NCBI GenBank assembly: GCA_964397655.1
Contig: CAYNKA010000004.1
Location: forward strand, 249,413 to 313,412
DNA length: 64,000 nt
Direction of reading: 5' to 3'
From: an uncultured Spirochaetaceae bacterium
GTDB taxonomy: Bacteria > Spirochaetota > Spirochaetia > DTKZ01
Made by a program: the position numbers and the translations under genes. A model generated the notes under the pieces. That model worked only from the letters and a program-made list of their open reading frames with translations, had not been told where the DNA came from and ran no database searches. Below are positions 1 through 58,752 of this stretch, one piece after another; the stretch's first letter is position 1, and the number at the start of each line of letters is the position of its first letter.

Positions 1-508
1 TTCCCGAGGGATCGACCGCGAGGCTATAAGGAAAATTGAAGGTCGCGGCCGTACCCTGACCGTCGTCGTTGCCCGAGGCCCCGGAACCTGCGAAGGTCGA
101 GACCATGATCGAGACCGTCGTTGCTTTCACCGCGGCGCTCCGTGCGCCCTCGCCTACCGAGTTCGTCGCCGAGACCTTGTACCAGTAGTCCGTGGTCTGG
201 GCGAGGTCCCGGTCGCGGTGGGTGAGGGCCGTGAGCCCGGTCTTGACCGCGGCGTAGGTCCCGTTCTCCGACGCCGAGCGGTAGAGCGTGTAGCTCGTGG
301 CTCCCGAAGACGCGGACCAGGAGAGGGTCAGGGTGATGCCCGTGGCCGCCTGGACCGCGAGCCCCGTCGGCGCGGCCGGCGCCGATGGCGACGCGGGATT
401 GCCGGTACCGTCCGTGCTGTCGGAATCCGAATCGGACTGGGAACAGGCCGCTATGAGCGAAACCGCAAGGGCGAGAATGGCGATGACGTTTTTCGATGGA
501 TACCGCAC
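1..508 (-). CDS. Lipoprotein with FN3 domain followed by NHL repeats (partial, runs off the window start)
   Basis: Not in the ORF track. AGGAGG then GTG at 508 opens a frame reading MRYPSKNVIAILALAVSLIAAC (lipobox), then APTGLAVQAATGITLTLSWSAS...YTLYRS...TDYWYKVSATNSVGEG (FN3), then VSTFAGSGASGNDDGQGTAATFNFPYSLAVD (NHL start). Confidence 0.8.
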   Translation of the reverse strand, partial: MRYPSKNVIAILALAVSLIAACSQSDSDSDSTDGTGNPASPSAPAAPTGLAVQAATGITLTLSWSASSGATSYTLYRSASENGTYAAVKTGLTALTHRDRDLAQTTDYWYKVSATNSVGEGARSAAVKATTVSIMVSTFAGSGASGNDDGQGTAATFNFPYSLAVDPSG

Positions 509-625
509 GATTTTCCTCCTTTTCGTGTCCCAAGAACGCGGATGCGTTCCGTTCCCGGAGGCTGCTCGGCGGCGGTGCAAGGAGCGGATGACTGGGTTGT
601 GCCCCTCTATTCGTTCTTGTGAGTA

Positions 626-634
626 ATTATAGCA
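626..634 (-). promoter_or_regulatory. Extended -10 promoter (TGcTATAAT) of the FN3/NHL lipoprotein gene
   Basis: The plus strand reads ATTATAGCA at 626-634, which is TGCTATAAT on the minus strand, about 115 nt upstream of the GTG. Confidence 0.55.
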
Positions 635-700
635 CGGCGTTGGGGAAAAAACGTATTTTGAAGGGATGAAAGCCCCGGCGCGGCCGGCCGGGGGCACTGC

Positions 701-1188
701 TTAGAACGTGATCTTCCTGATCGTCTGATTGCCGGTGTCGGCAACATACATGTCGCCCGAGGAGTCGAAGGCCATGCCTTTCGGGTAGTTGAACTTCGCG
801 GACGCGAGGGTCCCGTCGGCGGTTCCCGCGATCGTCGACACCATCGCGGTGATGGAGGTCCCGCTCACCGCGGGACTCAACTCGCTTTCTCCCGCACCGT
901 TCGCGGCCGAGACCTTGTCGTACTAGGTGGTGGTCTCCGAGAGGCCCGTGTTCTTGCCGTTGCTCGTCGTCGAGCGGTAAAGGGTGCAGCTCGACGCTCC
1001 CGACGAAGCGGTCCAGGAAAGCGTCATGGTGATTCCGGTACTGGCCGATACAGCGAGACAGGCGGGGGCCGATGGTACTTCGCGTTCGTCGTTGTCGGAA
1101 TCTTTGCCGAGACCTGTGCAGCTCGGCAACAGGGTCGCGGCGATCAGGATAGGCGACAGGGAGAGAATTTTTCGATTCTATTCGACAT
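701..1188 (-). pseudogene. Degraded paralog of the FN3/NHL lipoprotein
   Basis: AGGAGG and ATG at 1188. A 1-nt frameshift lies within the first 7 codons, before KILSLSPILIAATLLPSC. The FN3 segment has an in-frame TAG at 923-925 (TT*YDKVSAANGAGES, against TDYWYKVSATNSVGEG in the neighbour). Only one NHL repeat remains (AKFNYPKGMAFDSSGDMYVADTGNQTIRKITF*). Confidence 0.8.
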
Positions 1189-1427
1189 CCGTATTCCTCC
1201 TTGTTTCAACCATGCAGCAAACACGCACTCGCGGGGATTTCAGGGGAGAAAGGCCGGGAGCACGACTCCCGTGCGAAATATCTGCATGTATAATTTGTTA
1301 CTATATATTGAAATAATATCACCCGATCTGAAAAAATCCCGGCGAAACGGCGATGACCGGTAGAATTCCTCCATGAGTCCTGCAGGGAGCCCTTCACAAA
1401 ACGGGAGAATCGGCTACAATTGCCGGT

Positions 1428-2600
1428 ATGAGCCTATCGAACCAGCTCCGCGACAGATCGCGCCGCGTGATGCCGGGCGGAGGCGGAACTGCGGGTTCGT
1501 CCTTCTTCGCCTCGGCCGAAGGCGTACGCTTGAGTACGGTTGACGGCAGGACTCTCGTCGACTTCACCGCCGCCTGCGGAAGTCTCATCCTCGGCTCCGG
1601 GAACGAAGCCGTCGAACGCGCGGTGAAGGCCGCCTGCGAGCGGGGCCTGTATCCAGGTCTCCGCTCCGAGGACGAAGTGAGACTGGCGGAGCTTCTCGTC
1701 TCGTACATCCCCTTCCTGGACGCGGTGGTGCTCTCGGATTCTGGGAGCCGGGCGATCCGCTCCGCGGCGGATATCGCGAGGAGAATCACGGGCAGGAAGA
1801 CCGTCCTTTACGCGGGGCAGGGCCGCGCCGCGGACCTCGCCTCGGATGCGAAAAGGATTCCCTACAACGATCTCGCCGCCGCTTCGGCGGCCTTTTCCTC
1901 CCGGAAGGGGAGGATCGCGGCCGTTCTGGTCGAGCCGATCGCCTCGAGCATCGGGGTCGCGGAGCCTGCGGCCGGATACCTCAAGGGGCTTCGCGATCTC
2001 TGCGACGCCGGAGGCGCCTTCCTCGTTTTCGACGAAAGGATTTCCGCATTCCGTTTCGGCCTTTCGGACTACGCTTCCTTCTGCGGGGTCCGGCCGGACC
2101 TCGTCTGCCTCGGGGGAATCGTCGGGGGAGGCTTCCCCATCGGCGCGCTCGGCGGAAGCAGGGAGGCGCTCAAGGAAGCCGCGTCCTTCGCGGAGGCGGG
2201 CTCCCCGGCACATCCCGCGGCGATCGCGGCCGGCGTCGCGGTCCTCCTCGAGCTGGAAAGGACAGATCCCTACGACCGCCTCGATCTCTACGCGAGGAGA
2301 ATCCGGGAAGAACTCAACGCATTCGCGGCCGAGAACGACATGGATTTCCGCGTCGCGAATGCTGGCGGCGTTTTTTCACCGTTCTTCCGCAAGGAGAGAG
2401 TAGTCACCGAAGCGGACGCCGAGAATTGCGACGTGGGAAGATACGGCATGTTCGCGCGGAGGCTCCTCGACCGGGGATGGCTCGTTCCCGCTTCCCGGTT
2501 CGCCCCCTGCTTCGTGTCGGCGGCCCACGAGGACGGCGAGATCGACGGCTTCATCGAGGCCTGCCGCCTGACCCTGGACGAGGTGTTCGAAACGGTATGA
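1428..2600 (+). CDS. Glutamate-1-semialdehyde aminomutase (HemL)-like class III aminotransferase fold, catalytically degenerate
   Basis: Collinear with HemL (MPGG, DG..VDF, SG, PYNDL, VEPIA, GLRDLCD.G..LVFDE, PDL.CLG.I.GGGFPIGA.GG), but the PLP lysine position is Gly (GGA at 2115-2117) and the YHG loop is absent. Confidence 0.8.
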   Translation: MSLSNQLRDRSRRVMPGGGGTAGSSFFASAEGVRLSTVDGRTLVDFTAACGSLILGSGNEAVERAVKAACERGLYPGLRSEDEVRLAELLVSYIPFLDAVVLSDSGSRAIRSAADIARRITGRKTVLYAGQGRAADLASDAKRIPYNDLAAASAAFSSRKGRIAAVLVEPIASSIGVAEPAAGYLKGLRDLCDAGGAFLVFDERISAFRFGLSDYASFCGVRPDLVCLGGIVGGGFPIGALGGSREALKEAASFAEAGSPAHPAAIAAGVAVLLELERTDPYDRLDLYARRIREELNAFAAENDMDFRVANAGGVFSPFFRKERVVTEADAENCDVGRYGMFARRLLDRGWLVPASRFAPCFVSAAHEDGEIDGFIEACRLTLDEVFETV

Positions 2601-3694
2601 AACTGCTGCATTGCGCGGATCTTCATCTTTCCCGTTCCGAGGAGGACTATTCCTTCCGCGTCCTCGACGAAATCGCGGACGTCGCGGCGAAGGAGTCCTT
2701 CGGGGCCCTGCTCTTCGCCGGAGACGTCTTCGATTCCCGCGCCGACCTCGAGGCGCTCCGGGACCGGTTTCGGAAAACTCTTGAGCGGCTTCCCGCCGAG
2801 ACTGGCGTCTTCATGATCCCGGGCAACCACGAGTATCTGGGCGCGGCCTCCGAGGACGAGGCCGGACTTTCGCGGTTCGACTTCGGAAGGGCCCGGCTGC
2901 TCGCGAAAAGGCCGTTCGCCCTCGTTCCGCTCGGGGCCGGAATCGAGCTCCTCGCGCTTCCCTTCCGCAGGGACTACGCCGATTATCGGGACTGGAGCGT
3001 TCCCCCGAAGGACGGGGCGTTTCGAGTCCTCCTCGCCCACGGGACGGTCCCGGGCATGAGCTTCTCCGGCCCGGACGAGGAAGGAGCGACCGCGGTGATC
3101 GACGCCGACTTCCTTTTCCGCTTCGGAATAGACTACGCGGCGCTGGGGCACATCCACGCCGGCGCGGCCGCGAACGTCGGGTCGACGGCGGCGGTCTACC
3201 CGGGCTCCGCGAGGGTCTGGCGCGAGGGAGAGGAGGGCCCGAGAAAGGTCGTCGTGTTCTCCGCCGGGACGAAGCCGGTTAAGCTCGAGGAGAGGGTCCT
3301 GAAATCCGCGGGCCGTTTCATCCCCCTGCGCCTCGAAGCGGGCCTGGACGGGACTCTTCCCGCGCCGGAGGCCGTCCTCGGCGGGATGCCGCAGGTTCCG
3401 GGCCGAGGAGACTGGGTCCGCATCGAGGTCTCCGGCCTCGTGGAGGACGAGACCGTGACGATGAGGGACCTGGAAAAGCTAGCGGTCGAGATCGGTCGGC
3501 TCTGCAGGAGGGTGACGTCGGACGCCGGAGCGCTCGACGTGTTCGCCGGCATTTCGGCCCACCCGCTCGCTCTGCGCTTCGCCGAGGCCTGGGAGAAGGC
3601 GAGGGCCGCGAATCCGGACAAGGACGAGCTCTACCGTCTCGCCCGGCTCAACGGCCTCAAGACCTTGAAGGAAATCCTGGAGTCCAGAAAATGA
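2597..3694 (+). CDS. Mre11/SbcD/YhaO-family metallophosphoesterase (DNA repair exonuclease)
   Basis: MKLLHCADLHL, AGDVFD, PGNHE, LAHG, ALGHIH and YPGS motifs. ATG at 2597 overlaps the upstream TGA (ATGA). Confidence 0.88.
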   Translation: MKLLHCADLHLSRSEEDYSFRVLDEIADVAAKESFGALLFAGDVFDSRADLEALRDRFRKTLERLPAETGVFMIPGNHEYLGAASEDEAGLSRFDFGRARLLAKRPFALVPLGAGIELLALPFRRDYADYRDWSVPPKDGAFRVLLAHGTVPGMSFSGPDEEGATAVIDADFLFRFGIDYAALGHIHAGAAANVGSTAAVYPGSARVWREGEEGPRKVVVFSAGTKPVKLEERVLKSAGRFIPLRLEAGLDGTLPAPEAVLGGMPQVPGRGDWVRIEVSGLVEDETVTMRDLEKLAVEIGRLCRRVTSDAGALDVFAGISAHPLALRFAEAWEKARAANPDKDELYRLARLNGLKTLKEILESRK

Positions 3695-5955
3695 TCAAAC
3701 GCCTCGTCCTCGAATCCTTCGGAAAATTCAGGAACAGGGACTTCGCCTTCGGTCCGGTCACCCTCTTCTTCGGCCCCAACGAGGCCGGGAAAACCACCGT
3801 CTTCGACGCGGTCTTCGACGGCATCTCCGCGCCGAAAGGTACGATCGAGGCCGGCAAACGGCTCAGGGACCGTTACGGTCCGGACCGGAAGGCGAGGCTC
3901 GAGTTCGACGGCGAGCCGGTCTCGATCCCCGCCCCGGACTTCCTCAACCTCTTCGCGGTCCAGGCCGGGAAGATCTCCTTCGACATCGACAAGAATTCGG
4001 AATGGATGAACCGGGTGAAGGCCGAGTTGTTTTCGGGCGGAGTCTCGCCCGCGGTCGTCGCCCAGAAGCTCGACGGGAAGCTCAAGAGCAGGACGAAGGA
4101 TTCGCTCCGCGCGGAGATCGAACGGCTCGAACTCGAGTTGGGTGCGACGCGGGATGCGCTCCGAGCCGCCAGAGGCGAACGCGAGGTCTGTCTGGCGGAC
4201 GAGAAACGGATCGCATCGCTCGACGAGAGGAGGAGGAGTGCCCAGGAGGAGATCGAAGCCCTCGCGGCGGAAACGAAGACCCTGCGCGAGGACATCGACC
4301 GGCAGCGCAATCTCCGGGAGGCGAAGTCGGTCGAGAATCTGCTCGCCCTCTTTCCGGAAAGGAAGAGGCTCGCGGAGGACCTCGAGCGGTACGGGCGGTA
4401 CTCGGGCGAGACGCTCGAGGAACTGAAGCGGATGGAGGCGGACCGCCAGAAGCTCAAATCGGAGGCGGACCGGTGCGAGGCCTCCCTGCAGGCCGCGGAG
4501 GAGAAGCTCGGAGATCTCCTCGACGAGAAGGCCGAGGCGGAAGCGGAAAAAACGAAACTCGAGAAGGCCGGGATCGCGGCCTCCATGCTCAAGAAGGGCC
4601 TCCTGGACCGGGAGAGGCTCGTCGACAGGAAGACGACCCGTTCCTTCAGACCGCCGCTCCTCGCAGCCGCCGCGGTCGCCCTGGCCGCTGGCCTCGTCCT
4701 TTTCTTCCTCGCGCCGCCCGCGGCCTCGCTCTTCGCGTTCGTCGCCTCCACCGCAGCGGGCCTCGTCCTCTTCTTCCTCTCGATGCGGAAGGAGACGCGG
4801 GAGGACTTCTCGAGACTCGAGGCCGCCTTGCGCGACGTCCGCGAAGCGTGGAAACGGGAAACTGGCGGCGACCTCGGCGAGGGGGGCTACGAAGCCGTCC
4901 TCGTGGCCCTGGACAGGGCCGCGGAACGGGCCGCCCGGGCGGCGAGCCTCTTCGAGAAGGTGCGCGACCGGGCTGCGGAACAGGAGAAGGCCGCCGCGGA
5001 CCGGAGGGCCGAACTCAGGCGGGCCCAGGACGCCGTTCTCGATGCCGAGCGGGGCATCCGGCGGGTCCTGGAACGGGCCGGAGCCGCGGACCGCGAGGAG
5101 TACGCCGCCAGACTTCAGAAGCGGGAGTTCCTCGAAAAACGGCTCGAGGCGATAGACGCGGCGCTCGGCGCCGCGAGGCTTCGTTACGGCGCCGCCTCGG
5201 ACGCGGACCTGGAGGGCAGGGCTTCGAGGAAACTCGCCGAGCTCGCGGCCGTTCCCGCCGCGGACGAGGCGGGCGAAGCGGAATTCAGGGCTCTGGAACG
5301 GGCCTTCGCCGAGAAGACCGCGAGACTAGAATCGCTGCGAAGCGACGAGCGCGCGGCGCTCGGCGATCTCGGCCTGAACAGGGGTTCGCTCCGCGAGCGG
5401 TTCAAGGGACTTCCCGAGCGGATCGCAGGCCTCGAGCGGGCCGAGGCGGAAGGCGTCCGCCTCCTCGCGGAAAGGCGAAATTCCATGAAGGCGATCGAAC
5501 TCGCCCGCGACATCTTCGCCTCCCTCACCGGGGACGACGGCGCCATGCTGTCGGAGCTCTCCCGGGAGATTGGCGCGACGTTTTCGCGGGTCCTCGCGAT
5601 GGAGCGCAACGTCGTCTTCGAGTCCTTCGACGCCGAAGAGGCCGCGGTGACCGACGCGGGAGGCGGGGCGAGACGTGAGAACCAACTCTCCTCCGGCACG
5701 CGCGACGCTTTCCTTCTCGCCGCGAGACTCGTGCTCGCGAGGAAATCCCCGGCGGGGCCGGGGGGCGGCCTCGTGGTCCTGGACGAGCCCTTTCTCGCGC
5801 TGGACCGCCCGAGGACGAGGAAGGCCCTCGAGGTGCTCGACGAATTCCGCTCGAATGCGGGTTGGCAGATCGTCCTCTTCACGAAGGATGAAGCCCTCGC
5901 CGAGGACGCGAGGAAGGTCTTCGGCGGCACCCTAACGGTGCACGACCTGGGCTGA
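3691..5955 (+). CDS. Rad50/SbcC-like YhaN (AAA_27-type) ATPase with coiled coil and a central hydrophobic hairpin
   Basis: Walker A GPNEAGKTT, long coiled coil, LSSG signature, Walker B VLDEPF. Two hydrophobic segments lie mid-protein (LLAAAAVALAAGLVLFFL / LFAFVASTAAGLVLFFL). ATGA overlap with the nuclease gene. Confidence 0.88.
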   Translation: MIKRLVLESFGKFRNRDFAFGPVTLFFGPNEAGKTTVFDAVFDGISAPKGTIEAGKRLRDRYGPDRKARLEFDGEPVSIPAPDFLNLFAVQAGKISFDIDKNSEWMNRVKAELFSGGVSPAVVAQKLDGKLKSRTKDSLRAEIERLELELGATRDALRAARGEREVCLADEKRIASLDERRRSAQEEIEALAAETKTLREDIDRQRNLREAKSVENLLALFPERKRLAEDLERYGRYSGETLEELKRMEADRQKLKSEADRCEASLQAAEEKLGDLLDEKAEAEAEKTKLEKAGIAASMLKKGLLDRERLVDRKTTRSFRPPLLAAAAVALAAGLVLFFLAPPAASLFAFVASTAAGLVLFFLSMRKETREDFSRLEAALRDVREAWKRETGGDLGEGGYEAVLVALDRAAERAARAASLFEKVRDRAAEQEKAAADRRAELRRAQDAVLDAERGIRRVLERAGAADREEYAARLQKREFLEKRLEAIDAALGAARLRYGAASDADLEGRASRKLAELAAVPAADEAGEAEFRALERAFAEKTARLESLRSDERAALGDLGLNRGSLRERFKGLPERIAGLERAEAEGVRLLAERRNSMKAIELARDIFASLTGDDGAMLSELSREIGATFSRVLAMERNVVFESFDAEEAAVTDAGGGARRENQLSSGTRDAFLLAARLVLARKSPAGPGGGLVVLDEPFLALDRPRTRKALEVLDEFRSNAGWQIVLFTKDEALAEDARKVFGGTLTVHDLG

Positions 5956-6046
5956 GACCGCATCGCGGCCGGCTCGTCCCGCATGCCGCGAACCCGGAGC
6001 CCGGTTTCCCCCCTGTTGTCCGCGGCAGATGATGATAATTAGTCGA

Positions 6047-6074
6047 TTGAAATGTGCAAAAACCGTGCTATAGT
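6047..6074 (+). promoter_or_regulatory. Sigma70-type promoter
   Basis: TTGAAA (6047-6052), 16 bp spacer, TGc-TATAGT (6069-6074), then AGGAGG at 6081-6086. Confidence 0.6.
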
Positions 6075-6094
6075 TGAAGAAGGAGGAAAAATTG

Positions 6095-7117
6095 ATGAAA
6101 AAGTCAATTATCACTATTTTTATCGTATGTTTGCTGGCAATTCCCTCTTTTTCCGATACCATCACCATCACTGATTACAAAGAAGGTTTCAAAACCTTCG
6201 CCGACGACATGGCAGCCGCGCTTCCGCTCAACACCATGGTCGGCCTCAACTGGTCGGACGCCTATATCGGTCAGCTCATCGATCTTCCGCCGCACTTCGG
6301 AATAGGTTTGACCGGCGGCTTCACGACGGTCCCCTACGACGCCTTCAAGAAAATCATGGTGGACACCCTCAAGACCCCGGAAAGCGACATCCCCTCGGTG
6401 ATCAGGGATTACGGCCTACCGCTTCCCGCGATGGTGATCGACGGGCGCGTCGGCGGCTTCATCCTGCCGTTCGACGTCGGCTTCAAACTCGGTTTCCTTC
6501 CGAAGCAGGTGAAGGACAGCATCGACAAGAAGGTCGACATCGACTACCTCCTCGTCGGCTTCGACTTCCGATACAAACTTCTCGATCAGACCTTCATCGT
6601 CATCCCCGAGATTTCCGTGGGTGCCGGCTTCAACTACCTGAAGGGCTCGGTCACCTTGAGCGACATCGTTCCGGGAACGACCATCTCCGACCTCGGCACG
6701 GTCAATCCCGCCCTGAGCGGCCAGACCCTCAGCCTGTCCTCGCCGGACTTCAGCATCGACTGGACGAGCAAAGTCTTCGACCTCAAGGCCCAGGCGAGCT
6801 GGAGTCTCCTCATCATCCAACCGAGCATCGGTGTCGGTTTGAGCTACGCGAAGTCCAGCGTGACGGGCGGGGCGGCTTCGACCCTGCTCCTCAACGGCAA
6901 CCCCCTCACCACGACTCAGAAGGATTATTTCCGTGCCTTCGGCTTCGACGTGGATAATACCGGGATTTCCGTATCCTCGGACGTGACCTCCTGGGGCTTC
7001 CGTGCCTTCGGCGGCATGTCGGTCAACATCCTCCTGCTCCGCGTCGATTTCGGCCTCATGTACGACCTCATCGGCAAGAACTGGGGAGCGACCGTCGGCG
7101 GCCGCCTTCAGCTCTAG
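6095..7117 (+). CDS. Exported hypothetical protein, probable outer-membrane beta-barrel
   Basis: Signal peptide MKKSIITIFIVCLLAIPSFS. The C-terminal half has alternating hydrophobic strands and ends GKNWGATVGGRLQL. Confidence 0.65.
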   Translation: MKKSIITIFIVCLLAIPSFSDTITITDYKEGFKTFADDMAAALPLNTMVGLNWSDAYIGQLIDLPPHFGIGLTGGFTTVPYDAFKKIMVDTLKTPESDIPSVIRDYGLPLPAMVIDGRVGGFILPFDVGFKLGFLPKQVKDSIDKKVDIDYLLVGFDFRYKLLDQTFIVIPEISVGAGFNYLKGSVTLSDIVPGTTISDLGTVNPALSGQTLSLSSPDFSIDWTSKVFDLKAQASWSLLIIQPSIGVGLSYAKSSVTGGAASTLLLNGNPLTTTQKDYFRAFGFDVDNTGISVSSDVTSWGFRAFGGMSVNILLLRVDFGLMYDLIGKNWGATVGGRLQL

Positions 7118-10632: not shown

Positions 10633-12726
10633 ATGACGACTAAAATACCTTTGGAACGCACCATAGACGAGTTCATCCTCGGGCGAAAAGTCCGCTTTAC
10701 GCTGGAGGAATTGCTGCAGGCCGTACAGTCCAAAGGCGGCAAGCGGTACGACGAAAAGGAAATACTCGACATCCTGGAGACGGAAGGCCTCGTCTTTTCG
10801 CGGGACTTCAAGGGCTTCATGCCGCGTCACGCCTTTTTCCGGAACGCCCGTTTCATGATCTCCCCCACCGAGGAGGAGGCGAAGGAGAGGATACTCTTTC
10901 CGGGGCACAGGTTCGTGCCTTTCTGCTCCCGGAGGGTCAGGCCCTGGGACTGCACGTTGAAATGCGGCGGCGTGCTGGTACCCCGCGAGAGCGTGAAACG
11001 CAGGCTCAAGGCCGTTTCCGTCTACCATTCGCTCTACGGAGCAGAAAGCCTTCCCGGCATCCTCATCGAGAACCACCCTTCGAACGAAAAGGCTTTCCGC
11101 GAGGCGAAAAGCCTGGACTGGGAGGCGGAACTCACCATCTACGATTTCACTCTTCCCTTCGAGCGGTGGAATTTCAAATTCGGCGACGGCCTCGTTTTCA
11201 CCGTCGAGGACTGGTCGGCAGGAGTGTATTCGGTGGATTTCGTTTCGGCGAAGGAACGGAAGGCCCTCATGAAGAAATCCGGGGACTGGATCGCGCGCAT
11301 GGAAAAGGGCTTTCTCAAGGCTTTCGACGATCTCGGCCTCGACTACCCCATGGAGGAGCAGATAGCCTACGGCTACTATTACGCGGGGAAGGAAGTCCAG
11401 AAGAATCCTCCCATCCATCTCGGCGGCTTCATCGATTCGTCGTCGAAGGTCAATTTCGTGGAATACGGGATGGAGATCCGGCTGTGGCACGAGCCGCACC
11501 TCGACCCTTCCCTGCTGAACCTGCCGGAGGCGGTCGGTGCCGAGGGGGCTACGGGCAGCATCGACGCGATTTTCCGGGATCTGGGAATCAGCCTCTCCGA
11601 GGTCGAGGTCGAAGCCTACATGAGGGACGAGCTTTTTCACCGGCGGGACCAGCCCGAAGCCGTGCTCAAACGTATCTTTTCCGGAAGGGCCCTGAAGTTC
11701 TATTCGGAAGAACAGCTCGACGATTTCGTGAAGTACTTCGACAAGCTGTGGAAACGGGTCCGGAGATCCTACAACTTCTTCGCCGACCAGCACGTCGGAA
11801 AGGTCAGGGAGAAGATCCTCGCCCTCCTCGACCGCCAAGTCGCATGGCTTCGCGGCCTCGACGCGCTCGACGTGTCCCCCGACGCCCTTCCCGTGAAGGA
11901 GATGACTCTGGCTTCGCAGACGAGCGCCTTCCTGGAAACCTACCTCCGGATCTTCAACAGGAAGAATCCCGTGTCCGAGGCGGAAATCGACGAGGTGCTC
12001 GACCTGCTTCCGCAGATCGATTCGTCCCTCGAGGGCCTTCGACGGACGGTCGACGAGGATATCAGCCGGAAGAGGGGCGGAACCCCGGCCGCTCCCGAGG
12101 TCGAACGGAATTTCAAGCTGATCAAGGCCGAGAAGCCCGGAAAGAAAGGCGATGATAAGAAGGACAAGCGCCAGTTCGTGCTGAAGGTCTCCCTCCAGCA
12201 CCTCCGGCCCCCGATCTGGAGGCGCCTGCGGGTGCCGGGCGACTTCACGCTCGCGGACCTCCACGAAGCGATTCAGGCCGCGATGGGGTGGGACAATTTC
12301 CATCAGCACGGCTTCCTCGTCGATTCCCGTTCCTATTCGCCCACCGACGAGGAAGGCAGGACTCCCGAAGGCGAAATCGACGAAGCGACGGCGGTCCTGG
12401 ACGAACTCGACCTGTCGTCGGATTCGGTGATCCGTTACACCTATGATTTCGGCGACGATTGGGTCCATTCCATATCGGTGGAGGAGATCGTTCGGCGCTC
12501 CGGCCTTTCCGAGGAGGAAGCCTCCGCTGCTGTCTGCCTGGGCGGCAAGCGGGCCTGCCCGCCGGAGGATTGCGGCGGTCCGGCGGGTTACGAGGAAATC
12601 ATCCAGGCCCTGAGGTCGCCCCGGAAGAAAAAATACCGTGAACTCCTCGACTGGGTCGGCGACTACGATCCCGAGGCCTTCGACATCGAGGCGGTCAATT
12701 CCAGGCTCAAGGGCCGGGACAGCTGA
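10633..12726 (+). CDS. Large protein with a C-terminal plasmid pRiA4b ORF-3-like domain
   Basis: C-terminal LKVSL..LRPPIWRRLRVP..FTLADLH.AIQAAMGW...H.H.F, Y.YDFGDDW.H and CPPEDCGG. The first ~500 aa are unrecognised. Confidence 0.75.
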   Translation: MTTKIPLERTIDEFILGRKVRFTLEELLQAVQSKGGKRYDEKEILDILETEGLVFSRDFKGFMPRHAFFRNARFMISPTEEEAKERILFPGHRFVPFCSRRVRPWDCTLKCGGVLVPRESVKRRLKAVSVYHSLYGAESLPGILIENHPSNEKAFREAKSLDWEAELTIYDFTLPFERWNFKFGDGLVFTVEDWSAGVYSVDFVSAKERKALMKKSGDWIARMEKGFLKAFDDLGLDYPMEEQIAYGYYYAGKEVQKNPPIHLGGFIDSSSKVNFVEYGMEIRLWHEPHLDPSLLNLPEAVGAEGATGSIDAIFRDLGISLSEVEVEAYMRDELFHRRDQPEAVLKRIFSGRALKFYSEEQLDDFVKYFDKLWKRVRRSYNFFADQHVGKVREKILALLDRQVAWLRGLDALDVSPDALPVKEMTLASQTSAFLETYLRIFNRKNPVSEAEIDEVLDLLPQIDSSLEGLRRTVDEDISRKRGGTPAAPEVERNFKLIKAEKPGKKGDDKKDKRQFVLKVSLQHLRPPIWRRLRVPGDFTLADLHEAIQAAMGWDNFHQHGFLVDSRSYSPTDEEGRTPEGEIDEATAVLDELDLSSDSVIRYTYDFGDDWVHSISVEEIVRRSGLSEEEASAAVCLGGKRACPPEDCGGPAGYEEIIQALRSPRKKKYRELLDWVGDYDPEAFDIEAVNSRLKGRDS

Positions 12727-20623: not shown

Positions 20624-22063
20624 TCATGCCGAGGCGAGCGATTTCGCGAGACCGCCGAGCTTGCGGACCGCCTCGTCCGTCTTCTCGGACCAGTAGGCCG
20701 CGTTGAGCCGGATGAAATTCCGGTACTTGTCGCCTGCGGAAAAAAGGTAGCCGGGGACGAGGGTGATTCCCTGCCCGAGCGCCTTGTGGTAGAGGACGAG
20801 GGAATCGACCTCTTCCGGCAGACGGACCCAGAGGACGAAGCCTCCCTGGGGCGACGAAACCCTGCTTCCTTCGGGGAAACTTCGAAGGACGGTCTGCGCC
20901 ATCCTCGATGTTTTTTCAGCGTACGCCCGCCGGATCTTCCTGAGATGACGGGCGTATCCTCCGTTCTCCAGGAACTCCGCGATCGCGAGCTGGGCGAGGA
21001 TGGGCGTGCACACGTTCGTCGCCATCTTGAGCTTCTCCACGTCCTGAAAACGTCTTCCCGGCACCACCCAGCCGATGCGGTAGCTCGGCGAAAGGTCCTT
21101 CGAGAATGACGAGCAGAGGAGAACTCCGCCGCTTCGGTCGAAGGCCTTGGCCGTCGACGGTCTCGGCTCGGAAAAGCCCAGCTCGCCGTGGATGTCGTCC
21201 TCGATGAGCGGAATCCCCTTGGAGGCGAGGAATTCGGCGAGCTGCTCCTTGTTTTCGTCCGGCATGAGGCTTCCGAGCGGATTGCTGAAATTCGTCATGA
21301 CGAAACATGCGCTTATCCTCCGGTGCTCCGCGGCGAAGCGGAGCGCGTCCAGGCTGAGTCCGGTCACGGGATGGGTGGGGATCTCGAGGGCCTTGAGCCC
21401 CTGGGACTCGAGGGCATGGAGGACCCCGAAGTAGCTCGGGGCCTCGACCGCCACGGTATCACCCGGGCTGCACACCGCCCGGAGCGAAAGGCTGACCGCT
21501 TCGAGGCAGCCGGCGGTGATGATGATCTCATCCGGGGATACCCTGGTCCCGGAGGAAACGAGATGTTTCGCTATTTGGAGCCGGAGTTCCTCGCAACCGA
21601 CGGGACTACCGCAGACGTTCTGCCTGTAATCGTTGCGCTTGGCGAGTCCCGCGAGAATTCGTCCCAGTTTGGCGGTCGGAAGGAGGTCGGGATTGGGAAG
21701 GGCGGCTCCGAACTGGACCAGGGCCGGATCGAGGGCGTCCTTGTGGACCTGCATGACCATGCTCTGGACCGTGACGGGCGAAGGATCCTGGGCCGAAGCC
21801 TCTTCCGGCTCCGGCAGTCCTCCGGAACTTTTCGCCGCGATGTAGTAGCCGGACTGCGGCCTCACCTCGATGAGGCCCCGGTCTTCCAGAAGCCGATAGG
21901 CCTCGAGGACCGTCGTCACGCTCACCTTTTTCAGGCGGCTCGTTTCCCTGACCGAAGGTATCCGGTCGCCGGTATGAAAGGTCCCGTTTTCCGCCATCTC
22001 CGCGATTTCCCGTGCGATCCGCTCGTAAAGAAAGGCTTTTCCGTCGCCCGTTTTATCCATCAT
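20624..22063 (-). CDS. MocR/GabR-type regulator (GntR wHTH plus PLP aminotransferase-like domain)
   Basis: GDRIPSVRE...VS..TV..AY HTH. IEDDIHGEL and SSFSKDLSP..RIGW, with the PLP Lys intact. AGGAGG 8 nt before the ATG. Confidence 0.92.
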   Translation of the reverse strand: MMDKTGDGKAFLYERIAREIAEMAENGTFHTGDRIPSVRETSRLKKVSVTTVLEAYRLLEDRGLIEVRPQSGYYIAAKSSGGLPEPEEASAQDPSPVTVQSMVMQVHKDALDPALVQFGAALPNPDLLPTAKLGRILAGLAKRNDYRQNVCGSPVGCEELRLQIAKHLVSSGTRVSPDEIIITAGCLEAVSLSLRAVCSPGDTVAVEAPSYFGVLHALESQGLKALEIPTHPVTGLSLDALRFAAEHRRISACFVMTNFSNPLGSLMPDENKEQLAEFLASKGIPLIEDDIHGELGFSEPRPSTAKAFDRSGGVLLCSSFSKDLSPSYRIGWVVPGRRFQDVEKLKMATNVCTPILAQLAIAEFLENGGYARHLRKIRRAYAEKTSRMAQTVLRSFPEGSRVSSPQGGFVLWVRLPEEVDSLVLYHKALGQGITLVPGYLFSAGDKYRNFIRLNAAYWSEKTDEAVRKLGGLAKSLASA

Positions 22064-22088
22064 GACTTGGGCCTCCTGAAATACCATT

Positions 22089-23502: not shown

Positions 23503-23568
23503 CCGTCGGGATATTCTCAAACCGCCCTCCGGATGCTACCATTTCGAACGGAACTGAAGGAGGGCGTT

Positions 23569-25674
23569 ATGAAGAAAGGACTGCTCCGCGTTCTCGTTTC
23601 GGCGGCGATCGTCGCAGTTCTCTCCCCGGCACCGCTCTTCGGGGGGGAAGGAAAGGTCGCGCTCGTTCTGGGGAACGGTTCATATACGAAGATACAACCG
23701 CTCGCGAATCCCGTGAACGACGCTGCGGACATGGCCGCGGCGCTCGGACGCATGGGATTCACGGTTCTTTCCGCCACCGACGCCGACCGAAGGACCATGC
23801 GGACGCGGATCGACGAATTCAGCCGGGCGATCCGGGGCGCGTCGATCGCGCTTTTCTATTACTCGGGGCACGGCGTTCAGCTCGACGGCGAGAACTATCT
23901 CGTCCCGGTCCACGCCGAGGTGTCCGTGCCCGGCGACGTTCCGGACGAATGCGTTCCGCTCTCGCGGATCACGGCGAGGATGGAGGAGGCCAGGGCCGGG
24001 ACGAACGTGATCATCCTGGACGCCTGCAGGGACAATCCGTTCAGGGCGGTGACGCGGGGCATCGAGCGGGGGCTCGCCGTGATCGGCCGGAAGCCGCCCG
24101 AAAGCATCATCGTCTATGCGACCGCCGAGAACGAAAAGGCCGAGGACGGAAGCGGCAGGAACGGGGTCTTCACCGCCGCGCTGCTCAGGCACATCGAGCG
24201 GAAAGAGGCGTTCACGGACATTCTGCTCGACGTCAAGGCGGAGGTGAGGGCCGCCACCTCGGACAAGCAGAAACCCGCGAACTACGACAACCTGACCCGG
24301 AAGGTCCATCTTTTCGGATCGGACGCCGCGGCGAAGCCGGTTCCGCGTCCTGCTTCGGAGCCGAGCGGCGCCGATGCGGTTCGGGCGGCGGAGGAACTGC
24401 GCCGCGGGATCGCCCTGTACTACGGCCGCGGGGTGAAGGAGGACCGGGAGGAAGCGAAGCGACGGATCGAGACCGCCGCGAACCTCGGGTCGGCCCGGGC
24501 CCAGTTCCAGCTGGCCTCCATGCATCTTTTCCAAAGATCGTATGCGCGTACCGGAGCGGGCGACATCGGGAGCCTCGATGAGGCGGTGAAGTGGCTGAGA
24601 ATCGCAGCTGAAGCAGGTTTCCCGCAGGCCCAGCTGTATCTCGGCGGGTTATACAGGGACGGCGCCGGCGGTCTCGCGAAGAGCGAGGCCGAGGCGAAGA
24701 AGTGGTTCGATCGGGCAACCGCACAGCTTCCCGCGATGCTGCGCGACGCGAAGGAAGGCGACGTCGAGACGCTTCGGACGCTGTCCATCCTCTACAGCAT
24801 GGGCTTCGGCGTGCAGAAGGACGAAAGCGAGGCGAGGAAGTGGTTTCGCAGGCTCCTCGAAGTCTCCCGGTCGGACGCCGAAGGAGGAAGTCTCTCCGCC
24901 CAGATGTTTCTCGCCGAACAGGCGCTCTACGGCGAAGATGGTCTCGAACCTAATGAAGCCGAGGCCGCGAAGTGGTATCGAAGGGCCGCGGACCAGGGAA
25001 GCCTGGAGGCGATGTTCATGCTCGGCGGAATGTGCCTTGAAGGCCGGGGCATCGCGAAGGATTCGGCGGAGGCATTGAGACTCCTGCGAAAAGCCGCCGA
25101 GGGAGGCCACGAAGGGGCCCGGTGCAGACTCGGCATGCTGTACATCTCCGGGAACGTCGTGAAGAAGGACGTGGAGGAGGGCCTGCGGTGGTACGTGAAG
25201 GCGGCGGAGAAAGGCAGCATCCAGGCCATGCTCGACCTCGGGGATCTCTATTCGGCGGGATCCGGAGTTCCGAAGAATCCGGCCGAAGCCGCGAACTGGT
25301 ATCGCAAGGCGGCCGAACTCGGGAACACCTACGCCCAGTACAATCTCGGCCGGATCTTCGAGGACGGAGCCGGCGTCGGGCAGAATTACACGGAAGCCGC
25401 GAAATGGTACGGCCGGGCCGCGGAGCAGGGACACGCGGAGGCCCAGAACTGCCTCGCCGGTCTTTACGAGGAGGGCCTTGGCGTCATCCAGGATTTCGTC
25501 CTCGCCCACATGTGGTACAACCTCGAGACGATGTTCCGCTACGACGAGGACGGCAGGGCCGAGGCTGCCTCGAAGCGCGACGCGGTGGCGAAGAGAATGA
25601 CGCCGGGGCAGATCGCGGAAGCCCAGAAGCTCGCTCGTGAGTGGATGGAAAACCATCCCGGCCTCAAGCCCTGA
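23569..25674 (+). CDS. Exported caspase-family (peptidase C14) protein with Sel1-like repeats
   Basis: Signal peptide, ALVLGN..Y, L.NPVNDA, FYYSGHG and ILDACR (His/Cys dyad intact), then about nine AxxWYxKAAEQG..AQ..LG..Y repeats. Confidence 0.9.
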   Translation: MKKGLLRVLVSAAIVAVLSPAPLFGGEGKVALVLGNGSYTKIQPLANPVNDAADMAAALGRMGFTVLSATDADRRTMRTRIDEFSRAIRGASIALFYYSGHGVQLDGENYLVPVHAEVSVPGDVPDECVPLSRITARMEEARAGTNVIILDACRDNPFRAVTRGIERGLAVIGRKPPESIIVYATAENEKAEDGSGRNGVFTAALLRHIERKEAFTDILLDVKAEVRAATSDKQKPANYDNLTRKVHLFGSDAAAKPVPRPASEPSGADAVRAAEELRRGIALYYGRGVKEDREEAKRRIETAANLGSARAQFQLASMHLFQRSYARTGAGDIGSLDEAVKWLRIAAEAGFPQAQLYLGGLYRDGAGGLAKSEAEAKKWFDRATAQLPAMLRDAKEGDVETLRTLSILYSMGFGVQKDESEARKWFRRLLEVSRSDAEGGSLSAQMFLAEQALYGEDGLEPNEAEAAKWYRRAADQGSLEAMFMLGGMCLEGRGIAKDSAEALRLLRKAAEGGHEGARCRLGMLYISGNVVKKDVEEGLRWYVKAAEKGSIQAMLDLGDLYSAGSGVPKNPAEAANWYRKAAELGNTYAQYNLGRIFEDGAGVGQNYTEAAKWYGRAAEQGHAEAQNCLAGLYEEGLGVIQDFVLAHMWYNLETMFRYDEDGRAEAASKRDAVAKRMTPGQIAEAQKLAREWMENHPGLKP

Positions 25675-27388: not shown

Positions 27389-28486
27389 TCAGTCCAGAAA
27401 CACGATGTCTTCGGGCCGGGCGACGACGTCGCGTTTCTTCGCCCCGAGCTGTTTCCGTATCTCAGAGCTGTGCTTCCCGAGGAGGCTCTTGAGTTCCGTG
27501 GAGTTGAGGCCCGTGACGATCTTCGCGACGTCGTTCACCGATACGATGTCGCCCGCGGCGAACACGCCCTGGACCTCGTGGACGCCCGAGGGCAGGAGAC
27601 TCTTGTGCGCGCGAAGGGCCTTGATGGCGCCCTCGTCCACGATGATTTTTCCCTCTGGCGCCGCGTTGATGATCCAGCGTTCGCGGGCCGCGAGCTTCTC
27701 CTGCGCGAGGAAGAGGGTTCCGATCTCCTCGCCCGAGAGGATGCGGGCGAGCACGTCCTTCTCCCTCCCGTGGGCAAGGACCATGCGGCAGCCCGCCCTT
27801 GCCGCGATCTGGGCCGCGAGGACCTTGGTTTTCATCCCGCCTGTGGAGAAGGTGCTTCCAGCCGCTCCCGCGCATGCGAGGATCTCGTCGGTCACCTTCT
27901 TCACGAGCCGTATCGGCTTGGCATCGGGATGTTCCTTCGGGTTCGCGTCGTAGAGCGCATCGATGTCGGTGAGGAGGATGAGGAGATCAGCGTCCACCTT
28001 GCTCGCCACGAGGGCGGAGAGACGGTCGTTGTCGCCGAAGGCGTTGCCGATCTCCGCGGTGGAAATCGAGTCGTTCTCGTTGAAGATCGGCACCACACCG
28101 AGGGAAAGGAGGGTGTCGACGCTGTTCCTGAGGTTGAGGTAGCTTTTCCGGTTGTTGAGCACCTCGCGCGTGAGCAGGATCTGTGCGGTGACCATGCCGT
28201 ATTCCCGGAAGATCTCCTTGTACTCCTTCATGAGGAGCGGCTGGCCGATGGAGGCGCAGGCCTGGCGCATCTTCACGCTCGTGATCTTCTCGCGGATGCC
28301 GAGCTCGCCGGCCCCCATCCCGATCGCGCCGGAGGTGACCACGAGCACCTTTCTTCCGGCCTCGACGAGTCCGGCGATCTGGCCGGCCATGGTCCTGAGG
28401 TAGCCCGTGTCCACGCTGTGGTTCTTCGAGAGGAGGTTCGTCCCGATCTTGATGACGACCCTTTCGGCTTTCTTGAAATTCCTCAT
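27389..28486 (-). CDS. proB: Glutamate 5-kinase with PUA domain
   Basis: VIKIGT, VTSGAIG, NENDSIS, FGDNDRLSA and TGGMKTK motifs. Confidence 0.96.
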   Translation of the reverse strand: MRNFKKAERVVIKIGTNLLSKNHSVDTGYLRTMAGQIAGLVEAGRKVLVVTSGAIGMGAGELGIREKITSVKMRQACASIGQPLLMKEYKEIFREYGMVTAQILLTREVLNNRKSYLNLRNSVDTLLSLGVVPIFNENDSISTAEIGNAFGDNDRLSALVASKVDADLLILLTDIDALYDANPKEHPDAKPIRLVKKVTDEILACAGAAGSTFSTGGMKTKVLAAQIAARAGCRMVLAHGREKDVLARILSGEEIGTLFLAQEKLAARERWIINAAPEGKIIVDEGAIKALRAHKSLLPSGVHEVQGVFAAGDIVSVNDVAKIVTGLNSTELKSLLGKHSSEIRKQLGAKKRDVVARPEDIVFLD

Positions 28487-29769
28487 GTCGTGAGATCCCG
28501 GTGCGTGTAGGTTTTCGCGTCCGGCCCCGAGTAGTCCGCGACGATCTGGCCGGAGCCGAAGAGGCGCCACTTGTAGATGACGAGGCCCTCCAGGCCCACG
28601 GGCCCCCTGGCGTGCAGCTTGCCCGTGGAGATGCCGACCTCCGCGCCCAGGCCGTAGCGGTAGCCGTCGGCGAATCGGGTGGAGGCGTTCCAGATCACGT
28701 CAGCCGAGTCCACCCGGTCCATGAACCGGAGGGCCTTTTCGCGGGAACGAGTGGCGATCGCGTCGGTGTGGCGCGAGCCGTAGATGTTGATATGGTCGAC
28801 GGCTTCATCCAGCGATCCGACGATCTTGATCGAAAGAATGTAATCGAGGTATTCGGTCTTCCAGTCCTCCTCGGTCGCGGGCGAGCAGGGGATGATTTTC
28901 CGGGTCTCGTCGCAGCCTCGGAGTTCCACGTGCTTCTCGTCCATCGCCTTCTTGAGGAGGGGAAGGTATTCCGCCGCCGCGCCTCGGTGCACGAGGAGGG
29001 TCTCGATCGCGTTGCAGACCGCGACGTACTGGGTCTTGGAGTCCACGGCGAGCCGGACCGCCATCGCGCGATCCGCGTCCTCGTCTACGTAGAGGTGGCA
29101 GAGGCCGTCGGCGTGTCCCATGACCGGGATGAGGGTGTTCTTCATGATGTGCCGGACGAACTCGTTCGATCCCCGGGGGATTATGAGATCGATGGACGAG
29201 TGGAGGGCGAGCATCTCGTTCACCTCCTCCCGTGTTTCGAGGAGATGGATCCAGCCTTCCGGGAGTCCGGCCTTCGCCGAGGCTTCGGCGATCGTGTCGG
29301 CGAGAACGCGGTTCGTCTCCAGGGCCTCCCTGCCTCCCTTGAGGATTACGGCGTTCCCGCTTTTCAGGCAGAGCGTGGAAATCTGGACAAGGGCGTCCGG
29401 CCGGGACTCGAAGATCACGCCGATGACGCCGATGGGGCAGGTGGTCCGGTAGAGCTCGAGCCCCGCGTCGAGTTCTCGGGCGGAAAGCACGCGCCCTACG
29501 GGGTCCGGGAGGCCGAGGAGGCTGTCGATGCCGTCGCAGACGCCGGCGAGCTTCTGTCCGTCGAATCTGAGCCGCGCGAGGAGGGGCGGCGCGAGTCCTT
29601 CCTGCTCCGACCGTTCGAGGTCCTTCCGGTTCGCTTCGAGGACGGACTCCCGGCGTGAAAGGAGGGCGGCGCGGATTTCCCCGAGTGCGCTGTTTTTCGT
29701 CTCGGCTCCGAGCGAACCGAGGACGACCGAGGCTTTTTTCGCGGCCTTCGCCGCATCTTCGCATCTCAT
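28483..29769 (-). CDS. proA: Gamma-glutamyl phosphate reductase
   Basis: PIGVIGVIFESRP, LKSGNAVILKGG, PRGS, VCNAIETLL and GAEVGIST.KLHARGP.GL motifs. Confidence 0.97.
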   Translation of the reverse strand: MRCEDAAKAAKKASVVLGSLGAETKNSALGEIRAALLSRRESVLEANRKDLERSEQEGLAPPLLARLRFDGQKLAGVCDGIDSLLGLPDPVGRVLSARELDAGLELYRTTCPIGVIGVIFESRPDALVQISTLCLKSGNAVILKGGREALETNRVLADTIAEASAKAGLPEGWIHLLETREEVNEMLALHSSIDLIIPRGSNEFVRHIMKNTLIPVMGHADGLCHLYVDEDADRAMAVRLAVDSKTQYVAVCNAIETLLVHRGAAAEYLPLLKKAMDEKHVELRGCDETRKIIPCSPATEEDWKTEYLDYILSIKIVGSLDEAVDHINIYGSRHTDAIATRSREKALRFMDRVDSADVIWNASTRFADGYRYGLGAEVGISTGKLHARGPVGLEGLVIYKWRLFGSGQIVADYSGPDAKTYTHRDLTT

Positions 29770-57343: not shown

Positions 57344-57348
57344 GTAAC

Positions 57349-58125: not shown

Positions 58126-58127
58126 CG

Positions 58128-58631
58128 TTAAAGCTCCTTCTCCGCGCGCAGGGCCAGGCTTTTCGCCTTGAGGGTCCTGAGCCGCTTCCGCACGCCGGAA
58201 ACGGACATCCCCGCGATTTCGGCGGTCTCATCCAAGGTCAGGCCGTCGACGTAATACAGGACGGCGATCGTTCTCGTCGACGTTTTCGAAGCGTCCGTAT
58301 CGTCCCCGCCGAAGATGCGGTCGAGGACGCTTCTCGCGGCCGAGACTTCCGCGATGTCTTCTCCGGAGGCTATCTCTTCCATGAGATCCTGGTTCCCGGC
58401 TATCCTCGCCCGCTTTCTCCTTCGCAGCGCATTGATGCTCACGTTCGTCGCGATGCGGTACATGAGGCTGCTGGGATAATCCGAGGTCAACGTATTCCGC
58501 CTGCGTAGCACCTGCATGAACGCGTCCTGCATCGCGTCGGCCGCGAGCTCCTCGTCCTTGAGAAGACCGAGACAGCGCCTGAAGACCATGGGGCCGTATT
58601 TCCTGTACAGAGCTTCGATGTCGATGCTCAA
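58128..58631 (-). CDS. ECF sigma-70 factor
   Basis: LY..YGP.VFRRC..LL.DE..A.DA.QD.F (region 2), IATN..IN.LR, and G.TLDE.A...G.SVSGVRKRL (region 4). Start taken as TTG at 58631. Confidence 0.92.
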   Translation of the reverse strand: MSIDIEALYRKYGPMVFRRCLGLLKDEELAADAMQDAFMQVLRRRNTLTSDYPSSLMYRIATNVSINALRRRKRARIAGNQDLMEEIASGEDIAEVSAARSVLDRIFGGDDTDASKTSTRTIAVLYYVDGLTLDETAEIAGMSVSGVRKRLRTLKAKSLALRAEKEL

Positions 58632-58752
58632 AGCAACCTCGTTTTTCCGTCCTCTATTATGCAACACCTGAAGGCGTGAAAAGCGTCACCGAGGCGGGAG
58701 GATATTTTCCTGAAGTTTGGCGAATCCGATCGCGGAGCGGAGGCGAGGACGG

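Follow-up and report, generated by a model that had tools for sequence, protein, structure and literature searches.

The active site of glutamate-1-semialdehyde 2,1-aminomutase (GSAM or HemL; EC 5.4.3.8) has been mapped in the Synechococcus enzyme, in which Ser28–Gly39 and Glu406 bind the substrate, Lys273 forms the Schiff base, Asp245 pairs with the pyridine nitrogen of the cofactor, Tyr301–Thr305 of the other subunit hold its phosphate and Cys149–Thr183 form a gating loop (PMC7338781). A quite separate system, the SbcE and SbcF proteins of Bacillus subtilis, has been described as insoluble and biochemically intractable, with a central domain in SbcE that is unique, hydrophobic, proline-containing and itself insoluble (PMC2811018). 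Here we analyse 64,000 nucleotides from an uncultured Spirochaetaceae bacterium (GenBank assembly GCA_964397655.1, contig CAYNKA010000004.1, positions 249,413–313,412 of the forward strand; hereafter the window), in which a gene at 1428–2600 (+) brings the two together. Its 390-residue product is, as predicted from its residues and modelled fold, a HemL by descent that has become a catalytically dead pseudoenzyme, with four of the five elements on the Synechococcus map removed or replaced and the aspartate (Asp202) as the sole survivor. The protein is under established purifying selection, as strong as that on the adjoining nuclease gene, and we tentatively propose that it now acts as a non-catalytic partner of an SbcF/SbcE-like nuclease–ATPase.

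The open reading frame (ORF) runs without interruption from ATG to TGA, and its product matches Pfam Aminotran_3 (PF00202) with 114.7 bits. The top NCBIfam models are those for HemL, although the family cutoff is not reached by either of them (TIGR00713, 258.2 bits against a trusted cutoff of 527.3; NF000818, 265.7 against a cutoff of 398), and the best matches in a sequence search of the Protein Data Bank are all GSA aminomutases (4e77, E = 8e-61). The AlphaFold2 model, for which 72 aligned sequences were used, has a mean predicted local distance difference test (pLDDT) score of 94.8 and a predicted template modelling score of 0.93, with dips only at three deletion scars. Foldseek aligns this predicted fold to GSAM 4e77 with a template modelling (TM) score of 0.92, and all of its 28 top matches (28/28) are GSAMs. 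Pfam, AlphaFold2 and Foldseek therefore agree on the class-III aminotransferase (fold type I) architecture, and the model bears out the intact fold that an earlier reading of the window, made from the letters alone (hereafter the sequence-only reading), had inferred. In the functional sense, in contrast, the protein is predicted to fall outside the HemL enzyme family: the catalytic features that define this family were looked for and are absent.

The losses can be followed element by element. The Schiff-base lysine (K265 in Escherichia coli, K273 in Synechococcus) is replaced by Gly230, encoded by GGA at 2115–2117 (+), turning CLGKIIGGG into CLGGIVGGG (clgKiigg against clgGivgg in the alignment to 4e77), and glycine occupies this position throughout the four-lineage clade described below. 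The eight-residue substrate loop VNSPVRAF, with Ser29 and Arg32, is deleted, again in all four members, leaving a scar at 1479–1490 (+) at which PGG-VNSPVRAF-xxVGG has become PGG-GGTA and pLDDT falls to 81–82. Approximately 26 residues are missing over G.YHGH and the gating loop, such that 25 residues stand where canonical HemLs have 51; the scar, from Tyr127 to the AGQGRAA segment (1806–1835 (+); query residues 127–132 against 139–170 of the structural chain; pLDDT 75 at residues 131–140), takes the place of Synechococcus Cys149–Thr183, including Tyr150-His151-Gly152-His153. At a third scar (2193–2213 (+); pLDDT 78 at residues 251–260) the phosphate-fixation loop G-x-VYQAGTLSGNP is shortened to EAGS-PAHP, with loss of Tyr301–Thr305. 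Elsewhere SWG has become ACG, SGTEA has become SGSRA (Thr124 replaced, Gly-Thr changed to Gly-Ser) and DEVxTGFR has become DERISAFR (residues 202–209; 2031–2054 (+)), in which Val to Arg204 and Gly to Ala207 are both fixed in the clade; A49 and V101 are further clade-specific fixed replacements.

These alignments uphold, residue by residue, the sequence-only reading, which had reported 390 uninterrupted codons of HemL type, glycine for the Schiff-base lysine at residue 230, in-frame deletion of the VNSPVR and YHGH/gating loops, and the changes of SWG to ACG, DEVMTG to DERISA and GTLSGN to AGSPAH. It had called the active site 'systematically removed', and the phrase is fair: 20 canonical HemLs define 142 positions with at least 90% invariance, of which 53 survive in every one of the four clade members and 89 are changed or deleted. 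We find losses beyond those it listed, namely Glu406 to Ala359 and Gly-Asn217 to Ser-Ser, and in the helix at the dimer interface Glu125 and Arg132 have changed. Asp202 (equivalent to Asp245, which pairs with the pyridine nitrogen) is retained, as are Glu203 and Arg209. Of the cofactor contacts, Asp202 and a Ser-Gly-Ser phosphate cup are kept, the Tyr301–Thr305 loop is shorter and altered in sequence, and Asn217 has gone. A substitute Schiff-base lysine, which the sequence-only reading had named as a finding that would count against it, was sought among the clade-invariant residues; the only such lysine, K186, occurs in the active sister enzymes as well and was rejected, and no clade-specific conserved lysine was found. 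The MocR protein of the window (20627–22087 (−)) keeps its lysine in an SFSK motif, as had also been noted. From the residues lost, the 390-residue protein is predicted to be incapable of HemL chemistry.

Relatives were sought in 5.8 billion proteins by a word-indexed search and, exhaustively, among 1.84 billion cluster representatives with HMMER. The first gave two close relatives, 86% and 72% identical in protein, and the second added a fourth lineage (P0121) at 45% identity. The resulting clade of the window, L001/L002 (86%), L003 (72%) and L004 (45%) has proteins of 367–390 residues, and all four lineages have glycine at the lysine position, the same in-frame gating-loop and phosphate-loop deletions and the motif DER[IL]SAFR; the L004 protein has lost a further approximately 23 N-terminal residues. 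Among the three closer lineages, the ratio of nonsynonymous to synonymous substitution rates (dN/dS, Nei–Gojobori) is 0.21–0.26 at dS 0.33–0.85, compared with 0.12–0.18 for the active sister hemL genes and 0.19–0.26 for the SbcF-like genes of both clades: constraint on the dead gene is relaxed about 1.5-fold, not lifted. In 60-codon segments along the gene the ratio never exceeds 0.36, and the strongest constraint (0.07–0.10) falls on residues 181–240 and 271–330, the strands around the former active site. Strain variants on contigs from four sludge and digester metagenomes have zero indels, with approximately 26 of the 38 listed ORF substitutions at third codon positions, and independent JGI, Logan and ENA assemblies show identical lesions. 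The gene thus combines clear homology to an active enzyme and the disappearance of catalytic residues with purifying selection and conservation across lineages. The sequence-only reading had argued for a selected pseudoenzyme rather than decay, to be doubted if no other genome had the variant and dN/dS was about 1. The variant recurs in L001/L002, L003 and L004, the ratio is 0.21–0.26, and that argument stands, with the shared lesions and the predicted intact fold on the same side.

The origin of the dead clade can be traced. A search with P0121 gave four canonical HemLs of 429 residues (P0270–P0273) that stand out above other HemLs: their identity to the window protein is 48–51%, that of ordinary HemLs approximately 40%. 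With the window protein they share the motifs GLSAYATFCG, LERTDPY, DFHVA, MLDRGWYLPPSQ and EIDGFIxAAxxSLxExFE, and they have the canonical NSPVR, SWGP, SGTEA, GCYHGH with gating loop, GNMG, DEVITGFR, CLGKIIGGG, VYQAGTLSGNP and PSQFE. Neighbour-joining bootstrap support reaches 100% for the dead clade and 92.5% for the group of canonical sisters, the node that unites the two has 87%, and the distance to outgroups is 1.26–1.34 for the dead clade against 0.79–0.82 for the sisters, approximately 1.6-fold. Each of the four sister lineages has the genes in the order cobO, a sirC–hemA (glutamyl-tRNA reductase, GluTR) fusion, a hemC–cobA–hemD fusion, hemB and hemL, then an sbcF-like and an sbcE-like gene, each entered through an ATGA overlap; the overlap between hemL and sbcF is kept in all eight lineages, dead and active. 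The SbcF and SbcE proteins of the window have their closest relatives in the sister lineage (54% and 48% identity); the best Spirochaetales match in GTDB reaches 48% and 37%. On this comparison the hemL–sbcF–sbcE block, including its translational coupling, is ancestral and older than the loss of catalysis. Because the active sister HemLs have the same ATGA arrangement, the coupling is inherited and no adaptation of the dead protein.

What has gone from the locus is the pathway upstream. The tetrapyrrole genes hemA, hemB, hemC and hemD are found neither in the 64-kb window nor upstream of the dead gene in L001, L003 and L004; tblastn searches for remnants of hemB, hemCD and hemA upstream of the dead gene gave nothing better than E = 0.2, and a comparison of the promoter region with the 3′ end of hemB from the sister lineage gave no significant match (z −1.5 to 1.65). 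In-situ deletion of the upstream pathway genes is therefore no more than plausible. Upstream of the promoter lies lipoprotein-related sequence that includes a divergent lipoprotein gene. Approximately 750 bp within 636–1388 are present in the window and absent from the close relative L001, and positions 700–1190 (−) hold a partial paralogue of the adjoining FN3/NHL-repeat lipoprotein gene, with a signal peptide, a lipobox and an in-frame TAG at 925–927 (plus strand), which is probably a duplicated pseudogene.

The gene had been credited with a −10 element of its own and with translational coupling to the gene downstream, and both are found. The −10 belongs to a full promoter-like site at 1393–1420 (+), with a −35 TTCACA (1393–1398), a 16-nt spacer and a −10 TACAAT (1415–1420), matching the consensus at 10 of 12 positions; the scan returned 5 sites, where shuffled sequence would be expected to give 0.4. 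Because the site ends 7 nt 5′ of the ATG, a leaderless or almost leaderless transcript is probable. All four lineages (the window, L001, L003 and L004) share the −35, the spacer and the −10, beyond which the upstream sequence is unrelated. The 16-nt spacer AAACGGGAGAATCGGC, within window 1393–1430 and the equivalent stretches of L001, L003 and L004, is conserved nearly as well as the hexamers, which exceeds what a bare promoter needs among lineages whose proteins are just 45% identical, and may therefore be an operator site. An Rfam scan of window positions 1–6200 at E up to 0.1 found no RNA family, and therefore no riboswitch. At the 3′ end, the junction GTATGA (2595–2600) places the sbcF ATG (2597) across the TGA stop, and no usable Shine–Dalgarno sequence lies near that ATG, the nearest GAGG being 13 nt away and too far.

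The first coupled gene (2597–3694 (+)) encodes a 365-residue SbcF/YhaO-like metallophosphoesterase of the Mre11 family (Metallophos, 59 bits; dN/dS 0.19–0.20) with D-x-H, GD, GNHE, HG and GHIH motifs intact. The SbcD/Mre11 models match it below their cutoffs, and no curated SbcD or Rad50 equivalog cutoff is reached. The second (3691–5955 (+)), joined to the first by an ATGA overlap, encodes a 754-residue SbcE/YhaN-like ATPase of SMC/Rad50 type (AAA_27, 32.5 bits against a cutoff of 22; also AAA_21 and AAA_23), with Walker A GPNEAGKT at residue 28, signature LSSGTRD at 666 and Walker B LVVLDEPF at 694. In the middle of its coiled coil, the 42 residues 323–364 (4657–4782 (+)) form a hydrophobic hairpin of two stretches around a Pro-Pro turn (Kyte–Doolittle maximum 2.67 over 319–366), which suggests that this Rad50-like protein may be anchored in the membrane. 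The hairpin takes the place of the zinc hook of Rad50 and SbcC and is also present in Spirochaetaceae UBA1318 (L010). By similarity the pair is of SbcF/SbcE type, an Mre11-type phosphoesterase followed by a YhaN-type head ATPase with a hydrophobic centre for the CxxC hook, and the three-gene order with the same 4-nt overlaps is found in L001/L002, L003 and L004, down to 45% protein identity. Short contigs from runs labelled as RNA sequencing span the hemL/sbcF (2504–2765) and sbcF/sbcE (3689–3872) junctions, which is suggestive of transcription across both. An anti-phage defence system was considered and rejected: PADLOC has no defence-system match for the HemL-like protein, gives the SbcE-like protein generic N-terminal ABC-ATPase matches (LmuB, 57.7 bits, residues 2–41) and the nuclease weak ones.

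Loss of the lysine extends beyond this clade. We compared 263 near relatives of at least 340 residues, comprising the top 150 HMMER cluster representatives and the listed word-index matches, a sample enriched for lysine-less proteins because the query itself is without these features. The lysine is absent from 46 of the 263, which have Gly, Pro, Ala, Arg, Ser, Glu, Asn, Asp or Cys in its place; a shortened gating loop accompanies 34 of these 46 compared with 10 of the other 217, Glu406 is lost in 40 of the 46, and Asp245 is kept in every one (46/46). The pattern shows what reads as a repeated and coordinated loss of active-site features among relatives of HemL. A planctomycete family (for example, in a Phycisphaerales genome) has 24 representatives at 50% clustering, with Pro, Ala or Gly at the Schiff-base position. 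In the four members looked up (P0075, P0124, P0131 and P0136) a VKOR-family gene, sometimes fused to DsbA/thioredoxin, follows directly 3′ on the same strand (4/4), and such HemL-like/VKOR loci lie at L005:8001–9990, L006:8001–10782, L007:2450–5231, L098:1160–3804 and L099:406–2353. Another protein, P0122 (L008:1–2787), has Glu for Lys and a short gating loop, and its gene has a 4-nt overlap with the end of hemD (HEM4, 86 bits), with serS coming next. In several further HemL-like proteins of 554–670 residues (P0125, P0128, P0139, P0155, P0198 and P0262), the HemL-like domain is C-terminal, after an N-terminal region of approximately 300–400 residues. The VKOR-linked family and P0122 resemble the window protein in losing the lysine together with a short gating loop, in losing Glu406 and in keeping Asp245; they differ in forming separate clades, in having other residues (Pro, Ala, Glu and others) at the lysine position and in their VKOR or hemD neighbours. 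Full-text literature searches found nothing on lysine-less HemL, on class-III aminotransferase pseudoenzymes or on a link between HemL and VKOR.

We propose the following course of events. In the ancestor, hemL would have ended a cobO-to-hemB operon for tetrapyrrole and corrinoid precursors, already overlapping, through ATGA, an sbcF-like gene that was followed by an sbcE-like one. In the lineage of the window (uncultured Spirochaetales of anaerobic sludge), the upstream pathway genes are missing from the locus, with a promoter immediately ahead of the old hemL start; HemL has lost its lysine, its substrate, gating and phosphate loops and Glu406, the remaining fold being held by purifying selection. 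The dead HemL would still be co-produced with SbcF and SbcE and serve them as a non-catalytic partner, as scaffold, stabilizer or regulator. The enzyme may already have had this partner role on the side while it was active, and the role would be the sole survivor once tetrapyrrole synthesis became dispensable. For the link to SbcF and SbcE speak the ATGA overlap in all four dead lineages, the lack of a usable Shine–Dalgarno sequence close to the sbcF ATG, the one conserved promoter ahead of the three genes and the RNA contigs across both junctions. We favour the whole chain, ending in a non-catalytic partner of the nuclease–ATPase, while holding it at somewhat less than an even chance; which of the non-catalytic roles (scaffold, sensor or partner) would apply, we infer.

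Several points weigh against this proposal. The adjacency to sbcF and sbcE carries no independent weight, because it was inherited from an ancestor with active HemL, and is no independent evidence of a functional link. In a GTDB scan with the SbcF-like profile, from which 80 loci were kept with best matches in Spirochaetales, Spirochaetaceae and Leptospira, tblastn found no HemL-like gene within 6 kb of the SbcF/SbcE-like pair; the pairs of other Spirochaetales and Leptospira therefore have no general need of such a partner, and the idea of HemL-like proteins as general companions of SbcF/SbcE is rejected. Just four dead-HemL lineages are known, all of them metagenomic, and the RNA contigs are few and of low depth, with DNA carry-over possible. 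An intact tetrapyrrole operon elsewhere in the genome would make the dead HemL a paralogue, opening other roles. A bolder form of the partner proposal, in which HemL had a concealed additional role as structural partner to a membrane-tethered SbcF/SbcE machine, the dead clade is in effect a separation-of-function allele left after tetrapyrrole loss, and the HemL fold has been reused repeatedly as a module without catalysis, we consider possible but doubtful.

The gene might instead be a relic of expression, its frame kept open because translation of sbcF relies on termination at the ATGA and on the operon's only promoter, with constraint reflecting the avoidance of a misfolded, aggregating or toxic product. 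The overlap conserved in dead and active lineages alike, the distance of the nearest GAGG, too far from the sbcF ATG to serve as a Shine–Dalgarno sequence, and a coupling older than the loss of catalysis are all consistent with this account, and the trimmed surface loops, together with the N-terminal residues missing from L004, fit a slow shrinking. Coupling, however, needs the last few codons alone, yet a fold of 367–390 residues is held down to 45% identity, dN/dS equals that of the functional neighbour, and the most constrained segments are internal rather than 3′-terminal. We therefore disfavour the relic, which we judge rather unlikely.

Also unlikely, in our estimation, is a non-catalytic role apart from SbcF and SbcE, either as a sensor of a ligand in the remodelled pocket (non-covalently bound pyridoxamine or pyridoxal 5′-phosphate (PLP), or an amino compound) or as a partner or decoy of tetrapyrrole enzymes, in a heterodimer with an intact HemL encoded elsewhere or bound to GluTR in the manner of HemL. 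Such a role would be in keeping with the retained Asp202 and Ser-Gly-Ser cup, with the aspartate kept throughout the lysine-less homologues, with the old active-site stretch being the most conserved part of the protein and with the Arg beside Asp-Glu (DER), which recurs in unrelated lysine-less lineages. The lysine-less P0122 still stands in a haem context, after hemD, and HemA–HemL complexes are known (PMC6399207). Set against this, Tyr150, Asn217, Thr305 and the lysine are all gone, for which reason a very low affinity for the cofactor is expected; no hemA, hemB, hemC/D or second hemL lies in the 64-kb window, and the two dimer-interface residues Glu125 and Arg132 are altered.

That the protein is still an enzyme, performing new chemistry without the lysine of the internal aldimine or the old substrate loops, we regard as highly improbable. 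The strong purifying selection centred on the former active-site strands and the clade-fixed R204, A207, A49 and V101 would suit it, but five separate elements of the PLP site have been removed or replaced together, 89 of the 142 near-invariant canonical positions are changed or deleted, and the full-text literature yielded no active class-III aminotransferase without this lysine. A recent pseudogene or assembly artefact, open by chance, has next to no chance of being correct: the sources are only metagenomic and the HemL score is below the family cutoff, but it is refuted by the same lesions in independent JGI, Logan and ENA assemblies, by in-frame deletions common to lineages just 45% identical, by a dN/dS well below 1, by strain variants without indels and by 390 open codons in a 63% G+C genome.

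As for the organism and the rest of the window, the G+C content is approximately 62%, and metagenomes containing the sequence come from biofilm, anaerobic digesters, bioreactor sludge and soil. The lineage is missing from the GTDB species representatives, a scan of the GTDB species genomes with the clade peptides FDERISAF and SDYASFCG having found no relative; JGI metagenome contigs searched with the clade profile gave only three distant class-III aminotransferases at 23–32% identity. ProB (27392–28570 (−)) is 78–93% identical to proteins labelled Spirochaetales, those labelled 'Spirochaetales bacterium' being at 78–81%, and its next named relatives (64–66%) are labelled Planctomycetes or Phycisphaerales, not other spirochaetes, a pattern that may reflect horizontal transfer or mislabelled bins. 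No other class-III aminotransferase or haem gene was found in the 64-kb window. Three paralogous genes of the URO-D family (45690–46658, 48455–49600 and 49641–50750, all (−)), with low Pfam scores of 37–104 bits, adjoin TRAP-transporter and sugar-acid genes; judged by those matches they are more likely to be relatives of MtaA/CmuA-type corrinoid methyltransferases than HemE, and if so the organism would use corrinoids despite the missing corrinoid-precursor genes at the hemL locus. Two large caspase-domain (Peptidase_C14) proteins are encoded at 23533–25674 (+) and 55163–58231 (−), one of them with five Sel1 repeats and the other, of 1023 residues, beside an extracytoplasmic function (ECF) sigma factor gene (58131–58667). 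A 697-residue protein (10633–12726 (+)) has a C-terminal plasmid pRiA4b ORF-3-like domain (187 bits) and an N-terminal 500 residues without a Pfam match.

These observations have consequences for annotation and for the study of both systems. Close relatives, P0121 and P0075 among them, are labelled 'glutamate-1-semialdehyde 2,1-aminomutase' in their sources, which would wrongly credit the genomes with a step of the C5 pathway, and the many independent lysine-less HemL families with conserved, unrelated neighbours suggest a wider, unexplored class. Because active sister, ancestral operon and dead descendant can be aligned, the locus reveals what selection discards from an enzyme, here three loops and the catalytic residues, and what it retains. 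It also opens a testable way into the little-understood SbcE/SbcF (YhaN/YhaO) system, for which a co-translated partner would be worth knowing because the B. subtilis proteins are insoluble and intractable.

Placed beside known systems, the window protein is closest to HemL itself, and to P0270–P0273 in particular. It shares with them the predicted fold (TM 0.92), the start position, the ATGA junction into sbcF–sbcE and the equivalents of Asp245, Glu246 and the arginine of GFR, and differs in being without the Schiff-base lysine, the substrate, gating and phosphate loops and Glu406, in being approximately 40 residues shorter, in scoring half of the family cutoff and in the absence of hemA, hemCD and hemB upstream of its gene. 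The downstream pair resembles SbcF (YhaO) and SbcE (YhaN) of B. subtilis in the succession of an Mre11/SbcD-like phosphoesterase and an SMC/SbcC-like ATPase, in AAA_27 and in a hydrophobic, proline-containing centre without a zinc hook; the B. subtilis operon differs in having no HemL-like gene and in having a third gene downstream, yhaM (an exoribonuclease), and the sequence similarity is distant. Among PLP-fold proteins without the lysine, LCB1/SPTLC1 of serine palmitoyltransferase (fold type I, an α-oxoamine synthase) pairs with the catalytic LCB2, and antizyme inhibitor (AZIN) is a dead ornithine decarboxylase of fold type III. In both, as in the dead HemL, a PLP fold has been kept under selection after loss of the lysine, for a partner or other non-catalytic role; they belong to other families and have known partners, whereas here three loops have been excised and the candidate partner is a nuclease–ATPase pair. 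The pseudoenzyme as a kind is known; one derived from HemL and welded to a system of SbcF/SbcE type is new.

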